Assembly: GCF_055900595.2 (NCBI RefSeq)
Contig: NZ_CM148325.1
Direction: 5' to 3' (one strand)
DNA length: 64,000 nt
A model generated the notes under the pieces. That model worked only from the letters and a program-made list of their open reading frames with translations. It did not search any database and had not been told where the DNA came from. The position numbers and the translations under genes are program-made. Shown here piece by piece: positions 1,456 through 24,946 of the stretch. How positions within the stretch are numbered: position 1 is the stretch's first letter; each line of letters opens with the position of its first letter.

Positions 1456-3504
1456 ATGAACATGTTTTTTAGGCTTACCGCGTTAGCTGGCCTGCTTGCA
1501 ATAGCAGGCCAGACCTTCGCTGTAGAAGATATCACGCGTGCTGATCAAATTCCGGTATTAAAGGAAGAGACGCAGCATGCGACGGTGAGTGAGCGCGTAA
1601 CGTCGCGCTTCACCCGTTCTCATTATCGCCAGTTCGACCTCGATCAGGCATTTTCGGCTAAAATCTTTGACCGCTACCTGAATCTGCTCGATTACAGCCA
1701 CAACGTGCTGTTGGCAAGCGATGTTGAACAGTTCGCGAAAAAGAAAACCGAGTTAGGCGATGAACTTCGTTCAGGCAAACTCGACGTTTTCTACGATCTC
1801 TACAATCTGGCGCAAAAGCGCCGTTTTGAACGTTACCAGTACGCTTTGTCGGTACTGGAAAAGCCAATGGATTTTACCGGCAACGACACTTATAACCTTA
1901 ACCGCAGCAAAGCTCCATGGCCGAAAAACGAGGCTGAGTTGAACGCGCTGTGGGACAGTAAAGTCAAATTCGACGAGTTAAGTCTTAAGCTGACAGGAAA
2001 AGCGGATAAAGAAATTCGTGAAACCCTGACTCGCCGCTACAAATTTGCCATTCGTCGTCTGGCGCAAACCAACAGCGAAGATGTTTTCTCGCTGGCAATG
2101 ACGGCGTTTGCTCGTGAAATAGACCCGCATACCAACTATCTTTCCCCGCGTAATACCGAACAGTTCAACACTGAAATGAGTTTGTCGCTGGAAGGTATTG
2201 GCGCAGTGCTGCAAATGGATGATGACTACACCGTTATCAATTCGATGGTGGCAGGTGGCCCGGCAGCGAAGAGTAAAGCTATCAGCGTTGGTGACAAAAT
2301 TGTCGGTGTTGGTCAAACAGGCAAGCCGATGGTTGACGTGATTGGCTGGCGTCTTGATGACGTGGTTGCCTTAATTAAAGGGCCGAAGGGCAGTAAAGTT
2401 CGTCTGGAAATTTTACCTGCTGGTAAAGGGACCAAGACCCGTACTGTAACGTTGACCCGTGAACGTATTCGCCTCGAAGACCGTGCGGTTAAAATGTCGG
2501 TGAAGACCGTCGGTAAAGAGAAAGTTGGCGTGCTGGATATTCCTGGCTTCTATGTGGGGTTGACAGATGATGTCAAAGTACAACTGCAGAAACTGGAAAA
2601 ACAGAATGTCAGCAGTGTGATCATCGACCTGCGTAGCAATGGCGGTGGGGCGTTGACCGAGGCAGTATCGCTTTCAGGCCTGTTTATTCCTGCAGGTCCG
2701 ATTGTTCAGGTTCGTGATAACAACGGTAAAGTTCGTGAAGACAGCGATACCGACGGTCAGGTCTTCTATAAAGGCCCGCTGGTGGTGCTGGTTGACCGCT
2801 TTAGTGCTTCGGCTTCAGAAATCTTTGCTGCGGCAATGCAGGATTACGGTCGTGCGCTGGTTGTGGGTGAACCGACATTTGGTAAAGGCACTGTCCAGCA
2901 GTACCGTTCATTGAACCGTATTTACGATCAGATGTTACGTCCTGAATGGCCAGCTTTGGGTTCTGTTCAATACACGATCCAGAAATTCTATCGCGTTAAC
3001 GGCGGCAGTACGCAACGTAAGGGCGTAACGCCAGACATCATCATGCCGACAGGTAATGAAGAAACGGAAACGGGAGAGAAATTTGAAGATAACGCGCTGC
3101 CGTGGGATAGCATTGATGCTGCAACCTATGTGAAATCAGGCGATTTAACGGCCTTTGAACCGGAGTTGCTGAAGGCGCATAATGCGCGTATCGCGAAAGA
3201 TCCTGAGTTCCAGAACATCATGAAGGATATCGCGCGCTTCAACGCCATGAAGGACAAGCGCAATATCGTTTCTCTGAATTACGCGGTGCGTGAGAAAGAG
3301 AATAATGAAGATGATGCGACGCGTCTGGCGCGTTTGAACGAACGCTTTAAACGCGAAGGTAAACCGGAGTTGAAGAAGCTGGATGATCTACCGAAAGATT
3401 ACCAGGAACCGGATCCTTATCTGGATGAGACGGTGAATATCGCACTCGATTTGGCGAAGCTTGAAAAAGCCAGACCCGCGGAACAACCCGCTCCCGTCAA
3501 GTAA
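1456..3504 (+). CDS. prc: tail-specific periplasmic protease Prc (Tsp)
   Basis: Track ORF 1408..3504 trimmed to ATG at 1456 (MNMFFRLTALAGLLAIAG signal peptide); 682 aa as recalled for Prc. Confidence 0.95.
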   Translation: MNMFFRLTALAGLLAIAGQTFAVEDITRADQIPVLKEETQHATVSERVTSRFTRSHYRQFDLDQAFSAKIFDRYLNLLDYSHNVLLASDVEQFAKKKTELGDELRSGKLDVFYDLYNLAQKRRFERYQYALSVLEKPMDFTGNDTYNLNRSKAPWPKNEAELNALWDSKVKFDELSLKLTGKADKEIRETLTRRYKFAIRRLAQTNSEDVFSLAMTAFAREIDPHTNYLSPRNTEQFNTEMSLSLEGIGAVLQMDDDYTVINSMVAGGPAAKSKAISVGDKIVGVGQTGKPMVDVIGWRLDDVVALIKGPKGSKVRLEILPAGKGTKTRTVTLTRERIRLEDRAVKMSVKTVGKEKVGVLDIPGFYVGLTDDVKVQLQKLEKQNVSSVIIDLRSNGGGALTEAVSLSGLFIPAGPIVQVRDNNGKVREDSDTDGQVFYKGPLVVLVDRFSASASEIFAAAMQDYGRALVVGEPTFGKGTVQQYRSLNRIYDQMLRPEWPALGSVQYTIQKFYRVNGGSTQRKGVTPDIIMPTGNEETETGEKFEDNALPWDSIDAATYVKSGDLTAFEPELLKAHNARIAKDPEFQNIMKDIARFNAMKDKRNIVSLNYAVREKENNEDDATRLARLNERFKREGKPELKKLDDLPKDYQEPDPYLDETVNIALDLAKLEKARPAEQPAPVK

Positions 3505-20104: not shown

Positions 20105-21466
20105 TTATTTCTCCAGTTGCTTCAGGATACGATTAACTTTATCAAAAGTTTCCTGATATTCCGCTTCTTCCTGGCTATCAGCGACAATTCCACCGCCCGC
20201 AGAGCAGTATATTTGTCCGTTAATGGCAGTCAGCGTGCGGATAGTAATGCTGGTATCCATGTTGCCGCAAAAGCTCAAATAGCCAATGCTGCCGCACCAG
20301 GCATTGCGTCGCTGCGGTTCCAGTTCGTCGATAATTTCCATAGCCCGTACTTTCGGTGCTCCAGTTATTGAGCCACCAGGAAAAGCTGCGCGCAGCAGAT
20401 CGCTGGTGTGTAACTGTTCTGGTAGTTGCGCCGTTATGGTGCTGACCAGATGATGCACGGCAGGGAAGGGTTCCACCACGAACAGCTCTGGTACTTTTAC
20501 CGAACCTGCTACGGCAACACGACCGATATCATTACGCATTAAATCGACAATCATCAGATTTTCGGCACGATCTTTCGCTGAGTTCGCCAGTTTTTCTGCT
20601 TGTTTGCTATCTTCCTGAGGATCGGGTAGGCGTGGTAGCGTGCCTTTAATCGGGCGGGTCTGGATTTCACTATTATCACAAAGAATAAACCGCTCTGGCG
20701 AAAGGCTTAAAATCGCGCCCTGTTCAAGACGTAAAAAAGCGCTAAATGGCGCGCGGTTGGCCTGATTAAGCTGAAGGAATGCCTGCCATTCATCGCCAGA
20801 ATAGGTCGCATGGAAACGCTGGGCGAGATTCACCTGATAGCAATCACCGCTGTGCAGATATTCCTGTACCTGGCGAAATTTTTCGCCGTACAGCTCGCGG
20901 GTCATATTGGATTGCCAGTCGGAAGTGAGCGTGAAATCTTCCTGCGGCGAGAATTGCTGGCTTTCCAGCCAGGCCCGACGGGCATTGACATCATTATGAC
21001 TCAGCAAAGAAACTGTTTGACGCTGGTGGTCGACAATGAGCGCCCAGTCGTAGATACCCACAGCCATATCCGGCAGAACGATATCTTGCTGCGCAATTTC
21101 TGGCAGTGACTCAAAACGGCGGCCCAGATCGTAGCCAAACAACCCCATCGCGCCGCCCTGAAATGGCAAATCTTCGTTATGCGCTGGGCGAATGTCTGCG
21201 CGATCCAGCACCTGCTGGAGCACCTGTAGCGGGTCATCAGTGGTCGTTGTGCGTTTTTCGCTTTCACTAACAACGGTTTCTTTACCGAAAGTGGTTAAAG
21301 TGCAAATCGGCTCGGCGACCACAATATCAAAGCGGCTATATGGATGATCGGCATAGCCGGAGTGTAAAAGCATCGCCCACGGCAGGTGACTTAAGCGGGA
21401 GAAATAAAATTCAGCGGCGTCCTGACGCCAGGGTAAAGTAATCACAGCGGGAGATAACGTCTTCAT
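20105..21466 (-). CDS. pabB: aminodeoxychorismate synthase component I (PabB)
   Basis: 453-aa [50 protein letters not shown]... Confidence 0.95.
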
Positions 21467-21539
21467 CAGTCCTGACTCTACTGGCTATGTGCCGGGTAGC
21501 ATGAAATAATTAGCGCCAACAATTTAGCAGGAGTTAACA

Positions 21540-21719
21540 ATGTTTGCAGGTTTACCTTCACTCACCCATGAACAGCAGCAAAAAGCCGTCGAGCGGATCC
21601 AGGAACTGATGGCACAAGGGATGAGCAGCGGCCAGGCAATCGCGTTGGTGGCAGAAGAGCTGCGTGCCAACCATTCCGGTGAGCGAATCGTGGCGCGTTT
21701 TGAGGATGAAGACGAGTAA
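21540..21719 (+). CDS. yoaH: UPF0181 small protein YoaH (59 aa)
   Basis: Translated by hand: [59 protein letters not shown]; absent from track (under 60 aa). Confidence 0.85.
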
Positions 21720-21777
21720 CACACTAATCCGTATCGCTTTCGTTATACAAGCCGATGGTTATTTGATTGTGAGAAAA

Positions 21778-21810
21778 AGGACGCTTTTCATATGTGATTA
21801 AAAGCGTCCT
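21778..21810. terminator. hairpin terminator between convergent yoaH and yoaC
   Basis: 11-bp perfect stem aggacgctttt / aaaagcgtcct; 5-A run upstream gives a U-run on the minus strand (yoaC side). Confidence 0.7.
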
Positions 21811-21838
21811 GACCCATTTATGCTGATGTAAATTTAAC

Positions 21839-22138
21839 TTAGACCAGTGCTTTTAGTTCTTCCTGCATATATGTTGAAAAGTATTCAGGATTTTTAATCA
21901 CAATGCGTTCACCAGACTCCATTTTTTTTGCCCATCCAACCATTTTTTCCGTGAACCCTGGGTTCCAGCCTTCCTGGTCAGCTCGCGCCGTAATATCAGC
22001 GGCACTCGCGGGTACTCCCAGTTCTTTCAAATATTTAAAGATTCCCTTCGCCGTGCTTTCATTCATCGAACTTGGTGTTGGCGCTGATACATCCATGGCA
22101 CCAATGAAATCCAGGGCTTTATCTATTACAGCAGGCAT
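21839..22138 (-). CDS. yoaC: DUF1889 protein YoaC
   Basis: Track ORF 21839..22198 trimmed to ATG at 22138 (MPAVIDKALDFIGAMDVSAPT...); 99 aa. Confidence 0.8.
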   Translation of the reverse strand: MPAVIDKALDFIGAMDVSAPTPSSMNESTAKGIFKYLKELGVPASAADITARADQEGWNPGFTEKMVGWAKKMESGERIVIKNPEYFSTYMQEELKALV

Positions 22139-22559
22139 ATTCTTATCCTTAAAATTAACCATGTTATCGATAAGGCTATATATGACCTTAATTTGCATCT
22201 AATATCAAAGGGATTATAACGATATGGCACGAGTTAACCTGTTGACATTCAGGTGTTTTAAAGGTAGCAGCTCATGGTGTGTTATCCAGTAAGAGGGAGA
22301 AAATTAACGGTCAGTTCTCACGCTATAACCAGATTGTTCAGCTAAGAAAGAAAACAAGAGATGCTAATCGAAGGGCGAACACAACGGCATTGTTATGTTT
22401 ATTTATATAGTTAGTTTTATAGCTAAAATTGAAATTATAAAAATAAATAATGAATTAGCAGGAGCATCAACAGTAATATCTTAATCTCTGGTCGATTTAT
22501 GTAAAACCGACCAGTATTATCGATAAATTATCGTCTGACTTATTTTGCTTCGATAAAGC

Positions 22560-22904
22560 TTACACCGCAGCCACAATCTTAATTTCAACTTTATACTTCG
22601 GGTTCATCAAACCCGCTTGTACCGTGCAGCGCACCGGCGCATGACCCGCGACAACCCAGGCATCCCACGCTTTATTCATCGCCGCGAAGTCGTTTTTATC
22701 AGCCAGGAAAATGGTGGCATCCAGAATGCTCGATTTATTGCTGCCCTGTTTTTCCAGCACGGCGTCAATCTGCGCCAGCGTGTTGGCGGTTTGCTCAAAG
22801 GCATTGGCGTCGAGGTTTTCCGGTACACCAGTGTAGTAGAGCGTGTTGTTGTGGATTACTACATCAGACCAGCGGGCTTCAGCATCGATACGAACGATAG
22901 TCAT
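22560..22904 (-). CDS. yoaB: RidA/YjgF-family protein YoaB
   Basis: Track ORF 22560..22952 trimmed to ATG at 22904 (MTIVRIDAEARWSDVVIHNNTLYYTG...); 114 aa. Confidence 0.85.
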   Translation of the reverse strand: MTIVRIDAEARWSDVVIHNNTLYYTGVPENLDANAFEQTANTLAQIDAVLEKQGSNKSSILDATIFLADKNDFAAMNKAWDAWVVAGHAPVRCTVQAGLMNPKYKVEIKIVAAV

Positions 22905-23035
22905 CATTTTGTCCTCATTATCCTTCCATTTTCGTGCTGCAAAGACTGCCACAATGTGAGGTCGCCGTCACCACTTCAACTGGCGAAAGCGCCCTCATCC
23001 TGACATAATCCCTGTTCAAATCAACAGGGGGTAGT

Positions 23036-24946
23036 GTGACGGACGATTTTGCACCAGACGGTCAGCTGGCGAAAGCGATACCAGGCTTTAAGCCGCGAGA
23101 ACCACAGCGACAGATGGCGGTAGCCGTCACCCAGGCGATAGAAAAAGGCCAGCCGCTGGTGGTGGAAGCAGGAACCGGTACGGGCAAAACCTACGCTTAC
23201 CTGGCTCCTGCGCTGCGGGCGAAAAAGAAAGTCATTATCTCGACCGGCTCAAAAGCGTTGCAGGATCAGCTCTACAGCCGCGATTTGCCAACAGTCTCAA
23301 AGGCATTGAAATATACGGGCAACGTGGCGCTGCTGAAAGGGCGCTCTAACTACCTCTGCCTCGAACGTCTCGAACAGCAGGCGCTGGCGGGTGGCGATCT
23401 ACCGGTACAAATTTTAAGCGATGTGATCCTGCTGCGCTCCTGGTCTAATCAAACAGTCGATGGTGATATCAGCACCTGCGTCAGCGTGGCGGAAGATTCA
23501 CAGGCGTGGCCGCTGGTCACCAGCACCAACGACAACTGCCTTGGCAGCGACTGCCCGATGTATAAAGATTGCTTTGTGGTCAAAGCACGCAAAAAAGCGA
23601 TGGACGCCGATGTGGTGGTGGTAAACCATCATCTCTTTCTGGCGGATATGGTGGTGAAAGAGAGTGGATTTGGCGAACTGATCCCGGAAGCGGACGTCAT
23701 GATCTTTGACGAAGCCCATCAGCTGCCCGACATTGCCAGCCAGTATTTTGGTCAGTCACTCTCCAGTCGACAACTGCTCGACCTGGCAAAAGACATCACC
23801 ATCGCCTACCGCACCGAATTAAAAGACACCCAGCAGTTACAAAAGTGCGCCGACCGCCTTGCCCAGAGCGCGCAGGATTTTCGCCTGCAATTAGGTGAGC
23901 CAGGTTATCGTGGTAACCTGCGCGAACTGTTAGCTAATCCGCAAATTCAGCGAGCATTTTTACTGCTCGATGACACCCTGGAACTTTGTTATGACGTGGC
24001 GAAACTGTCGCTGGGGCGTTCCGCCTTGCTGGATGCGGCATTTGAGCGCGCCACGTTGTATCGTACGCGGCTGAAACGGCTAAAAGAGATCAATCAGCCG
24101 GGCTACAGCTACTGGTACGAATGCACTTCGCGCCATTTTACTCTGGCACTCACGCCGCTCAGCGTGGCGGATAAATTCAAAGAGTTAATGGCGCAAAAAC
24201 CAGGTAGCTGGATCTTTACCTCAGCAACGCTGTCGGTGAATGACGATCTGCATCATTTTACCTCGCGGCTTGGCATTGAACAGGCAGAGTCGTTGCTGTT
24301 ACCCAGCCCGTTTGATTACAGCCGCCAGGCGTTACTCTGTGTGCCGCGCAACCTGCCGCAAACCAACCAGCCGGGCTCCGCACGGCAACTGGCGGCAATG
24401 CTGCGACCGATCATCGAAGCTAACAACGGTCGTTGTTTTATGCTTTGTACCTCGCACGCCATGATGCGCGATCTGGCTGAGCAGTTCCGCGCCACCATGA
24501 CGCTTCCCGTGTTGTTGCAGGGGGAAACCAGCAAAGGCCAACTGCTACAGCAGTTTGTCAGCGCCGGTAACGCGCTGCTTGTGGCGACCAGCAGTTTCTG
24601 GGAGGGGGTGGATGTGCGTGGCGATACATTGTCATTGGTGATTATCGACAAGTTGCCGTTTACCTCCCCAGATGACCCGTTGTTAAAAGCGCGCATGGAA
24701 GATTGCCGTTTGCGCGGTGGTGACCCGTTCGATGAAGTACAGCTGCCGGATGCGGTCATTACTCTCAAGCAGGGAGTAGGGCGACTGATTCGCGACGCCG
24801 ACGATCGAGGGGTTTTGGTGATTTGCGATAATCGGCTGGTGATGCGTCCTTACGGCGCGACCTTCCTCGCCAGTCTGCCGCCCGCGCCACGCACCCGTGA
24901 CATTGCCCGTGCGGTTCGTTTCCTTGCGATACCATCCTCCAGGTAA
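23036..24946 (+). CDS. yoaA: DinG-family ATP-dependent DNA helicase YoaA
   Basis: 636-aa ORF; Walker A GTGTGKT and DEAH-like box DEAHQL in translation. Confidence 0.92.
   Translation: MTDDFAPDGQLAKAIPGFKPREPQRQMAVAVTQAIEKGQPLVVEAGTGTGKTYAYLAPALRAKKKVIISTGSKALQDQLYSRDLPTVSKALKYTGNVALLKGRSNYLCLERLEQQALAGGDLPVQILSDVILLRSWSNQTVDGDISTCVSVAEDSQAWPLVTSTNDNCLGSDCPMYKDCFVVKARKKAMDADVVVVNHHLFLADMVVKESGFGELIPEADVMIFDEAHQLPDIASQYFGQSLSSRQLLDLAKDITIAYRTELKDTQQLQKCADRLAQSAQDFRLQLGEPGYRGNLRELLANPQIQRAFLLLDDTLELCYDVAKLSLGRSALLDAAFERATLYRTRLKRLKEINQPGYSYWYECTSRHFTLALTPLSVADKFKELMAQKPGSWIFTSATLSVNDDLHHFTSRLGIEQAESLLLPSPFDYSRQALLCVPRNLPQTNQPGSARQLAAMLRPIIEANNGRCFMLCTSHAMMRDLAEQFRATMTLPVLLQGETSKGQLLQQFVSAGNALLVATSSFWEGVDVRGDTLSLVIIDKLPFTSPDDPLLKARMEDCRLRGGDPFDEVQLPDAVITLKQGVGRLIRDADDRGVLVICDNRLVMRPYGATFLASLPPAPRTRDIARAVRFLAIPSSR

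Follow-up and report, generated by a model that had tools for sequence, protein, structure and literature searches.

Genomic setting of the yoaB-yoaC spacer

The window analysed here, by which we mean the whole 64,000-bp stretch of DNA, is part of an E. coli chromosome: a 1.4-kb query taken around the palindromes described below found matches in 5,425 of 5,426 complete E. coli genomes, with 100% identity to strain Z0117EC0005 and about 97.7% identity to K-12. The genes of the region are pabB (20105-21466, minus strand), yoaH (21540-21719, plus strand), yoaC (21839-22138, minus strand), yoaB (22560-22904, minus strand) and yoaA (23036-24946, plus strand). yoaC starts with the ATG at 22138-22136 and encodes a 99-residue DUF1889 protein. 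Between yoaB and yoaC lies a 421-bp AT-rich spacer (22139-22559), for which a preliminary description of this DNA gave the gene names, the length and all coordinates correctly. The GC content of the spacer is 0.33, and 0.28-0.31 over 22300-22600. Neither PGAP nor the curated MG1655 record annotates any feature within it, and no regulator gene adjoins it. A small ORF or sRNA in the spacer was considered and rejected: the middle 200 bp are poorly conserved, rich in indels, partly deleted in one other Escherichia lineage (Escherichia sp. MOD1-EC7003, here L005) and unannotated.

In Salmonella, Klebsiella and Enterobacter the stop codons of yoaB and yoaH are only 0-11 bp apart, and the 840-bp segment found between the stop codons of these convergent genes in E. 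coli (21720-22559) is absent, so we regard this segment as an Escherichia-specific, AT-rich insertion. It comprises yoaC, the 421-bp spacer and the intrinsic terminator of yoaC (21778-21812, minus strand), an 11-bp stem followed by UUUUU (-18 kcal/mol, z -3.8), and its GC content is 0.376, compared with 0.495 for the window. In a search of one genome per species, close relatives of YoaC were found beside yoaB and yoaH in Escherichia only; the yoaC homologues of Citrobacter, Buttiauxella and Lelliottia lie at unrelated loci.

The insertion thus shares several traits with AT-rich islets under xenogeneic silencing, which are likewise short low-GC insertions confined to one genus, possess their own promoter and terminator, and sit between conserved core genes while homologues occur elsewhere in other genera. 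It differs from them in that it has no integrase, no repeat boundaries and no plasmid or phage match, and in that its silencing is a prediction. Comparison with plasmids and phages gave no true match: the "plasmid" hits were mislabelled chromosomes. A mobile-element origin was rejected for want of a genuine plasmid or phage match.

Two palindromes and a family of related words

The preliminary description drew attention to the perfect 10-bp palindrome TTATCGATAA, and both of the copies it listed are confirmed: site 1 at 22164-22173 and site 2 at 22517-22526. No further copy exists in the window, for which whole-window shuffles predict 0.02. Site 1 occupies positions 26-35 upstream of the yoaC ATG, in agreement with the distance of about 26 bp that had been given, and approximately +34 to +43 of the predicted leader. 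Site 2 belongs to the A/T-rich flank of a stem-loop at the 3' end of yoaB, on the side that faces the yoaB stop codon. The further CGATAA-like repeats that had been noted are also real: CGATAA or TTATCG half-sites start at 22164, 22168, 22517, 22521, 22528 and 22551, six in total, with the additional ones outside the palindromes being TTATCG at 22528-22533 and CGATAA at 22551-22556.

Since the spacer is far richer in AT than the window (GC 0.33 vs 0.495), we evaluated these counts against local null models. Dinucleotide shuffles that preserve local composition contain on average 0.78 perfect 10-bp palindromes per 421-bp spacer. The same palindrome occurs twice in 0.275% of them (P = 0.00275), and an exact repeat of any 10-mer occurs in 43% (P = 0.43). 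When each 421-bp block of the window was shuffled separately, some 10-bp palindrome was repeated within 500 bp in 16 of 300 shuffled windows (5%), and several such cases are therefore to be expected per genome. The exact coincidence of the two palindromes is thus only marginal once the search space of the reader who noticed it is counted.

The broader family of TTATNGATAA and CGATAA words is more clearly enriched in the spacer. The six half-sites compare with an expectation of 0.38 when the dinucleotides of the spacer are shuffled (P < 2e-4). If one mismatch to the palindrome is allowed, K-12 has three copies where 0.067 would be expected (P < 2e-4); if two are allowed, the window strain has four, with an expectation of 0.69 (P = 0.004). 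A further 208 kb of K-12 DNA holds one copy of TTATCGATAA, inside the yadE coding sequence, so that across the 272 kb sampled the sole copy beyond the spacer pair is intragenic. Searching the literature for the word TTATCGATAA returned unrelated vector and primer sequences only. A different 10-bp palindrome, CAACCGGTTG, occurs inside ftsK, three times in a stretch of 160 bp.

The palindromes within and beyond E. coli

We aligned the spacers of the E. coli window strain, K-12, E. albertii, E. whittamii and three other Escherichia lineages: Escherichia sp. E1V33 (L006), SCPM-O-B-8794 (L009) and L005. Both E. coli sequences read TTATCGATAA at site 1 and at site 2. The corresponding positions of sites 1 and 2 read TTATCGATCA and TTATCGAAAA in E. 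albertii (L008), TTGTTGTTCA and TTATCGAAAA in E. whittamii (L007), TTATTGTTCA and TTATCTAAAA in L006, TTATTGTTCA and TTATCGAAAC in L009, and TTATTGATTA and ACTTGATAAT in L005. Neither palindrome is kept in any of the five lineages outside E. coli. What is conserved is the stem-loop that follows yoaB and about 150 bp upstream of yoaC; the middle of the spacer is poorly conserved, and approximately 150 bp of it are deleted in L005.

In E. albertii each site is a 9/10 version of the E. coli palindrome, from which a single substitution separates it. Beside the stem-loop, the plus strand of E. albertii reads TATTTTCGATAAATT, and a T-to-A change in it yields site 2 of E. coli. Judged from the alignment rather than from a formal tree, both palindromes appear to be derived and to have arisen within E. 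coli. Of 5,426 E. coli genomes, 5,384 (4,011 + 1,373; 99.2%) have an intact site 1, and a position two bases away from it is polymorphic in 25%. Site 2 is intact in 4,541 (83.7%); in 844 (15.6%), including Nissle 1917, CFT073 and an ST131 strain, it reads TTGTCGATAA, so that it has been broken again in phylogroup-B2-type strains. A lack of conservation in orthologous regions had been named as a refuting observation, and by that test the operator idea fails: the palindromes are absent from five other Escherichia lineages, and 15.6% of E. coli genomes have a broken site 2.

These observations bear directly on the possibility that the palindromes are operators. A dimeric helix-turn-helix repressor could in principle bind both, loop the 353 bp between them and shut off yoaC: the two identical perfect dyads bracket the promoter, one of them just downstream of the predicted transcription start, in a layout like that of the classic two-operator systems. 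As in the looping systems of lac, gal and deo, identical perfect dyads stand a few hundred bp apart on either side of a promoter. The yoaC spacer differs from those systems in having no known cognate repressor, no conservation across species, one polymorphic site and an out-of-phase spacing, as 353 bp corresponds to 33.6 helical turns. Moreover, the sites are not kept in any sister species despite 88-98% identity of YoaC there, the TTGTCGATAA allele breaks site 2 in 15.6% of E. coli genomes, and no regulator gene is adjacent. We consider looping repression very improbable: because the palindromes are not conserved in orthologous regions and site 2 is polymorphic, a dedicated operator pair is unlikely, and the two TTATCGATAA copies are not an old, dedicated one.

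To our knowledge, no E. coli operator consensus matches TTATCGATAA. Comparison by eye with the consensus sites of Fur, IHF, GlpR, GntR, Cra, ArcA, FadR, RutR and DnaA gave nothing convincing. The IHF consensus WATCAANNNNTTR fits 12/13 at 22519-22531, and Fur-like GATAAT hexamers are present, never in a valid arrangement. YoaC itself was considered as a DNA-binding regulator and set aside: it is a DUF1889 protein, and the related solved structures, 2ES9 and 2JN8, are titled simply "putative cytoplasmic protein". Self-regulation through the palindromes was rejected in the same way, as they are missing where YoaC is 98% identical.

Another reading is that the palindromes have no activity, two single-base substitutions in neutral AT-rich DNA having happened to make the same word twice. 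The family-wise probability of about 5% for a window of 64 kb and the frequent repetition of 10-mers in shuffled spacers (P = 0.43) are consistent with this, as are the single substitutions that separate both sites from E. albertii, the polymorphism of site 2, the intragenic position of the one other copy in 208 kb, and the ftsK repeat, which is functionless. Against it stand the local probability of 0.003 for an identical palindrome twice, the enrichment of the word family (P < 2e-4 to 0.004), the integrity of site 1 in 99.2% of genomes though a position two bases off is polymorphic in 25%, and the fact that the region is bound by protein in vivo according to published ChIP. Pure coincidence is in our judgement a possible explanation, though not a probable one.

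A conserved stem-loop at the 3' end of yoaB

A hairpin had been noticed at 22490-22512. It is real, and consists of an inverted repeat with 11-bp arms (22488-22498 and 22504-22514) that forms a stem-loop at 22488-22514 on the minus strand, about 45 nt past the yoaB stop codon. In an alignment of seven sequences, pairing is maintained in 92% of cells, with two compensatory pairs, compared with 16-48% in slid controls. Folding energies favour the yoaB strand, with -22.5 kcal/mol (z -3.8) against -16.8 kcal/mol (z -1.8) for its complement, and three lineages have G.U pairs that exist on the yoaB strand only and would be A.C mismatches on the opposite one. The element is most simply read as a 3' end structure or terminator of the yoaB transcript.

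In E. coli there is no U-tract 3' of the stem, where the tail reads AGAGAUUAAGAUAUUA, and a simple terminator scan found nothing. L006 has UGUUUUAG 3' of the stem, and some sister lineages have a U-tract on both sides. In the minimum-free-energy fold, site 2 of E. coli extends the base of the stem-loop. A known structured RNA family was rejected for the region 21400-23300, where an Rfam scan gave matches at chance level only (E 0.4-9.5, far under gathering scores).

Predicted promoter and leader of yoaC

The sequence upstream of yoaC contains a predicted -10 element, TATAAT, at 22213-22218 on the minus strand, with no recognisable -35 element, which would place the transcription start near 22206; paper supplements yielded no experimental start for yoaC. 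The TATAAT is kept in five of the six Escherichia lineages and reads GATAAT in E. whittamii, and related hexamers occur at the equivalent place in Lelliottia and Citrobacter. Activator-dependent promoters often have a good -10 without a -35, and in this respect the predicted yoaC promoter resembles the targets of LysR-type regulators. Upstream of the predicted -10, a block with the sequence CTGCTACCTTTAAAACACCTGAATGTCAACAGGTTAAC (22233-22270, minus strand) is conserved across Escherichia and may be a contact region for an activator or for RNA polymerase.

The translation-initiation region GGTTAATTTTAAGGATAAGAAT (22139-22160, minus strand), with the Shine-Dalgarno sequence AAGGA at 22150-22146, is nearly invariant among 16 sequences from four genera. 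The yoaC genes of Citrobacter, Buttiauxella and Lelliottia have kept the same leader, GGTTAATTTTAAGGATAAGA, and a similar sequence after the -10 despite their different loci. Site 1 falls within the most variable stretch of the predicted leader in the 16-sequence alignment. An N-terminal extension of YoaC across site 1 was also considered, and rejected: a frameshift puts the upstream ATG out of frame in E. albertii, a TAG interrupts the extension in B. gaviniae, and the start codon is missing in two other sequences.

One could imagine that the palindromes act at the level of RNA and control translation, with site 1 of the yoaC leader pairing either with the ribosome-binding region or, in a transcript that reads through from yoaB into yoaC, with site 2. 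An imperfect inverted repeat of 19 nt (22161-22179 and 22137-22155) does cover the Shine-Dalgarno sequence and the start codon, and site 2 lengthens the base of the yoaB stem-loop as described above. The predicted leader, however, folds no better than shuffled sequence (z 0.04), the 16-sequence alignment has no covariation and a consensus fold of only -1.3 kcal/mol, and the columns of site 1 are the most variable of the leader alignment. The fold and the alignment essentially exclude leader structure or sequestration of the Shine-Dalgarno sequence by site 1, and we regard an RNA element of either kind as extremely unlikely.

Reported occupancy of the spacer by YhaJ and YeiE

Two LysR-type regulators have been reported at this locus. 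At yoaC, ChIP-exo placed YeiE upstream of the site of RNA polymerase, and Gao et al. use the gene as their example of the upstream mode of YeiE binding, which is more commonly activating (PMC6237786). Connolly et al. list yoaC among the known YhaJ-regulated genes and report a YhaJ ChIP-seq peak there both in EHEC (scores 10.4 and 21.1; the fourth strongest) and in CFT073 (PMC6765310, SI Tables S3/S4). The motif published for the yoaC peak is TTATAGATAAAATTGA, 65-66 bp from the peak centre (PMC6765310 SI). The YhaJ box itself is described as an interrupted dyad, T-N11-A, of the form TCA-N7-TGA (PMC5031710).

When the CFT073 coordinates were mapped onto the window through the RefSeq record, the peak centres of this uropathogenic strain (2045463 and 2045445) fell at 22480-22498, within a peak of approximately 22279-22708; the EHEC centre has the same 65-bp offset from the same motif. 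The centres are thus on or just beyond the yoaB stem-loop, at a distance of 19-46 bp from site 2 and, in the opposite direction, of 48-81 bp from the published motif. The peak includes site 2 but not site 1, and its resolution is too low for assignment to a single site. The published motif, a T-N11-A candidate at 22417-22432 on the plus strand, is also the third member of the word family: it reads TTATAGCTAAAATTGA in the window and TTATAGATAAAATTGA in K-12, EHEC and CFT073, and the first 10 nt of the latter (TTATAGATAA) match the palindrome at 9/10 positions. In MG1655 the spacer corresponds to 1,893,712-1,894,132, where site 2 lies at about 1,893,745-1,893,754, this middle copy at about 1,893,839-1,893,854 and site 1 at about 1,894,098-1,894,107.

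No canonical YhaJ box was found in the spacer. A weight matrix built from 11 strong published sites, which score 12-20 bits on themselves, gives at most 2.8 bits in the spacer, and 320 positions of the window score as well or better. An exact TCA-N7-TGA is absent from 22100-22600; the best candidates there have one mismatch, at 22249 and 22272, and the better of them, TCAGGTGTTTTAA at 22249-22261 on the plus strand, lies inside the conserved block upstream of the -10. A canonical box at the palindromes themselves was rejected, since they do not match it and have no internal spacer.

The preliminary description had left the choice between a regulator binding site and plain AT-rich promoter DNA. 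The AT-rich promoter DNA is borne out, and so is occupancy of the region by regulators, namely YhaJ and YeiE in the published data (PMC6765310, PMC6237786). Nothing ties YhaJ or YeiE to the palindromes themselves: matrix scores do not exceed 2.8 bits, the published motif is at 22417-22432, and site 1 is outside the peak. The spacer is like the YhaJ targets yqjF, yhaK and yhhW (PMC5031710, PMC6765310) and the YeiE target yeiH (PMC6237786, PMC12880088) in being occupied according to published ChIP. It differs from LysR targets in the position of the ChIP centre, which precedes the predicted transcription start by about 280 bp and so lies much further out than the usual -65, and in that it has no TCA-N7-TGA box of normal quality, the palindromes being uninterrupted dyads. 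yoaC presents one of the strongest YhaJ peaks without a recognisable YhaJ box.

One explanation would be that the TTATNGATAA words are true, non-canonical contacts of YhaJ or YeiE, gained by point mutation, with a tetramer bridging 22517 and 22417. The YhaJ peak centres at 22480-22498 lie between site 2 and the weak published motif, and a strong peak, fourth in EHEC, stands over a spacer with no canonical box. In K-12, EHEC and CFT073 the published motif begins with TTATAGATAA, a 9/10 copy of the palindrome, which keeps this reading alive. Related words also occur at other YhaJ peaks, with TTATCGATCGTTTTAT at two cah peaks and TTATCAA... at gadX and yedL (PMC6765310 SI); the yoaC peak relative to that of yqjF is weaker in CFT073, in which site 2 is broken, a comparison of two strains that is anecdotal; and YeiE too binds upstream of yoaC (PMC6237786).

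Several points argue in the other direction. LysR boxes are interrupted dyads, whereas the two halves of these 10-bp palindromes adjoin directly. Even at validated sites, peak centre and motif can be as much as 93 bp apart (PMC6765310 SI), so the peak centre cannot identify the YhaJ site. Site 1 is outside the peak, and CFT073 still has a peak with its site 2 broken. Finally, AT-rich loci of the type silenced by H-NS (gadX, fimA, cah and nleA) recur in the YhaJ list, which suggests a general affinity of YhaJ for AT-rich DNA. We consider non-canonical LysR contacts unlikely, and rank them below the absence of any activity.

An H-NS-type motif beside site 2

The high-affinity consensus of H-NS is tCGATAAATT, with a central T-A step (Lang et al. 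2007, PMC2094087). An exact 10/10 match, TCGATAAATT, overlaps site 2 at 22520-22529 on the plus strand and is the sole exact match in the window; an exact match in the spacer has P = 0.005 in local shuffles. Weaker matches are found at 22161-22170, 22525-22534 and 22550-22559, and the words TCGATAACAT, ACGATAATTT and TCGATAAAGC are among those around the exact match. The spacer contains four decamers within two mismatches of the motif, compared with 1.4 expected (P = 0.05, marginal), and 15 within three mismatches, compared with 9.1 expected (P = 0.04), an enrichment tempered by the fact that any AT-rich DNA scores fairly well against this motif.

The TCGATAAATT decamer is better conserved than the site 2 palindrome: E. 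albertii and L009 keep it unchanged, L006 and E. whittamii keep it with one mismatch, L005 lacks it, and the B2 variant of site 2 leaves it untouched. This conservation may come simply from the A/T tract beside the terminator-like stem-loop, a tract that forms a T-run on the opposite strand in the sister species.

Because the TTATNGATAA and TCGATAA words coincide with the H-NS high-affinity motif, low-specificity contact with H-NS is the activity they would most likely have. H-NS binding is suggested here by the sequence together with the foreign, AT-rich character of the spacer; the literature searched yielded no H-NS occupancy or hns-mutant expression data for yoaC: the supplements of PMC4720273 and PMC8282354 have no entry for the gene, and the one paper found to name both yoaC and H-NS does so in another sense. 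Like the negative regulatory element of proU (Lang et al., PMC2094087), the spacer is rich in AT and in TpA steps and has candidate sites both upstream and downstream of the promoter. As with the high-affinity nucleation sites of H-NS, an exact match with weaker ones around it lies in horizontally acquired DNA. The proU sites are footprinted and functional; those of the yoaC spacer are candidates read from the sequence, with marginal enrichment, and the exact match adjoins a terminator-like stem-loop that alone could explain its conservation.

A foreign AT-rich control region

As the AT-rich control region of yoaC, an orphan gene that was acquired horizontally, the spacer is ordinary regulatory DNA. 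Within it, we read the palindromes as young, incidental words that are probably contact sites of H-NS, with YhaJ or YeiE activating on the same DNA. This reading, which holds about half of our confidence, ranks first, ahead of no activity and then of non-canonical LysR contacts. Some observations sit uneasily with the term "incidental", namely the enrichment of half-sites (P < 2e-4), the three near-copies in K-12 (P < 2e-4) and the 99.2% fixation of site 1.

yoaC entered the Escherichia lineage inside the 840-bp AT-rich insertion between the convergent yoaB and yoaH. At the yoaB end of the spacer stands the conserved stem-loop, which probably closes the yoaB transcript and whose A/T-rich flank holds site 2. 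The middle is a fast-evolving AT-rich stretch, occupied in vivo by YhaJ and YeiE according to published ChIP. The yoaC end carries the conserved predicted promoter, with a -10 but no -35, followed by the conserved leader and ribosome-binding site; site 1 falls where the leader varies. In the H-NS-based reading, H-NS would nucleate at TCGATAAATT, spread over the foreign AT-rich DNA and silence yoaC, and YhaJ or YeiE would activate the gene against this silencing. A striking pair of perfect palindromes can thus be a young, lineage-specific trait of foreign AT-rich DNA rather than a conserved operator. The analysis also gives a context to yoaC, a gene of unknown function that is a target of LysR-type regulators in two published ChIP studies.

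It is also conceivable, and in our estimation rather doubtful, that the TTATNGATAA words are new, E. coli-specific docking sites that recruit YhaJ or YeiE to the foreign orphan gene. If they are, the spacer would represent regulatory capture by point mutations caught in the act, and the loss-of-site alleles of B2 strains would be available for comparison. The natural variants of the spacer, with site 2 intact or broken and with A or C in the middle copy, in any case offer a cheap route to how YhaJ recognises this DNA. A more drastic natural variant also exists: in one strain, IS1 has replaced most of the spacer together with the start of yoaC.

yoaC lies on an inserted segment

An 840-bp insertion (21720-22559) comprises yoaC and both of its flanks and is placed between the stop codons of the convergent genes yoaB and yoaH. 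In the comparison loci from Salmonella, Klebsiella and Enterobacter (L024-L026, about 2846-2860), these two stop codons are only 0-11 bp apart. The yoaC-bearing segment is an Escherichia-specific insertion.

Homologues of yoaC in Citrobacter, Buttiauxella and Lelliottia are housed in unrelated loci (L010-L023, around 2930-3000; compare window 22139-22212): that of C. youngae adjoins a diol-dehydratase reactivase gene and a leuC-like gene, and that of Buttiauxella has fis/dusB nearby. The leader GGTTAATTTTAAGGATAAGA is common to Escherichia yoaC and the homologues in all three genera, and a box past the predicted -10 hexamer (22213-22218), CTCTTTGA(T/A)AT, is also retained in Citrobacter and Lelliottia. 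yoaC looks like a single-gene cassette that moves together with its own promoter and carries no visible gene for mobility.

The locus also varies in structure. Escherichia sp. MOD1-EC7003 (L005, about 2730-3000) lacks about 150 bp of the mid-spacer, the yoaA-yoaB interval of ‘E. coli’ SCPM-O-B-8794 (L009 1735-2204) is longer by about 340 bp, and in E. coli XJ5.2 (L035 182-879) IS1 replaces most of the spacer together with the 5' part of yoaC.

Boundaries of the yoaC transcription unit

An in-frame ATG (22162-22160, minus strand) lies eight codons 5' of the annotated yoaC start, which explains the longer yoaC ORFs found in ORF lists. A frameshift in E. albertii and a TAG codon in B. gaviniae disrupt the N-terminal extension that this ATG would add, MVNFKDKN, and the annotated start of the 99-aa protein is therefore right. 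Downstream, yoaC has an intrinsic terminator (21778-21812, minus strand; −18 kcal/mol, z −3.8) with an 11-bp stem followed by UUUUU, which a simple terminator scan missed because its loop is 11 nt. An Rfam SpR14 match overlapping the terminator is weak (E 0.4) and was dismissed as chance.

Regulator binding in the spacer

In published YhaJ ChIP-seq data, the yoaC peak ranks among the strongest in EHEC. The spacer contains no canonical YhaJ box: the training sites score 12-20 bits, and the best spacer match reaches 2.8 bits. The peak centres (22480-22498) fall on the yoaB stem-loop (22488-22514), and the motif put forward by the authors of those data (22417-22432) lies 65 bp away.

This motif coincides with the middle copy upstream of yoaC, whose K-12 version reads TCAATTTTATCTATAA. 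For YeiE, the comparison was with one validated target region, the yeiE-yeiH intergenic region of MG1655 (L003 4620-4717), in which the 10-mer TCAATTTTAT of the K-12 middle copy recurs exactly. The chance of such sharing between two AT-rich regions is roughly 0.4, and the shared word is only a lead for YeiE.

As an empirical control, a natural case of a repeated perfect 10-bp palindrome was taken from ftsK of MG1655 (L037 35453-35609), where CAACCGGTTG occurs three times inside the gene within 160 bp.
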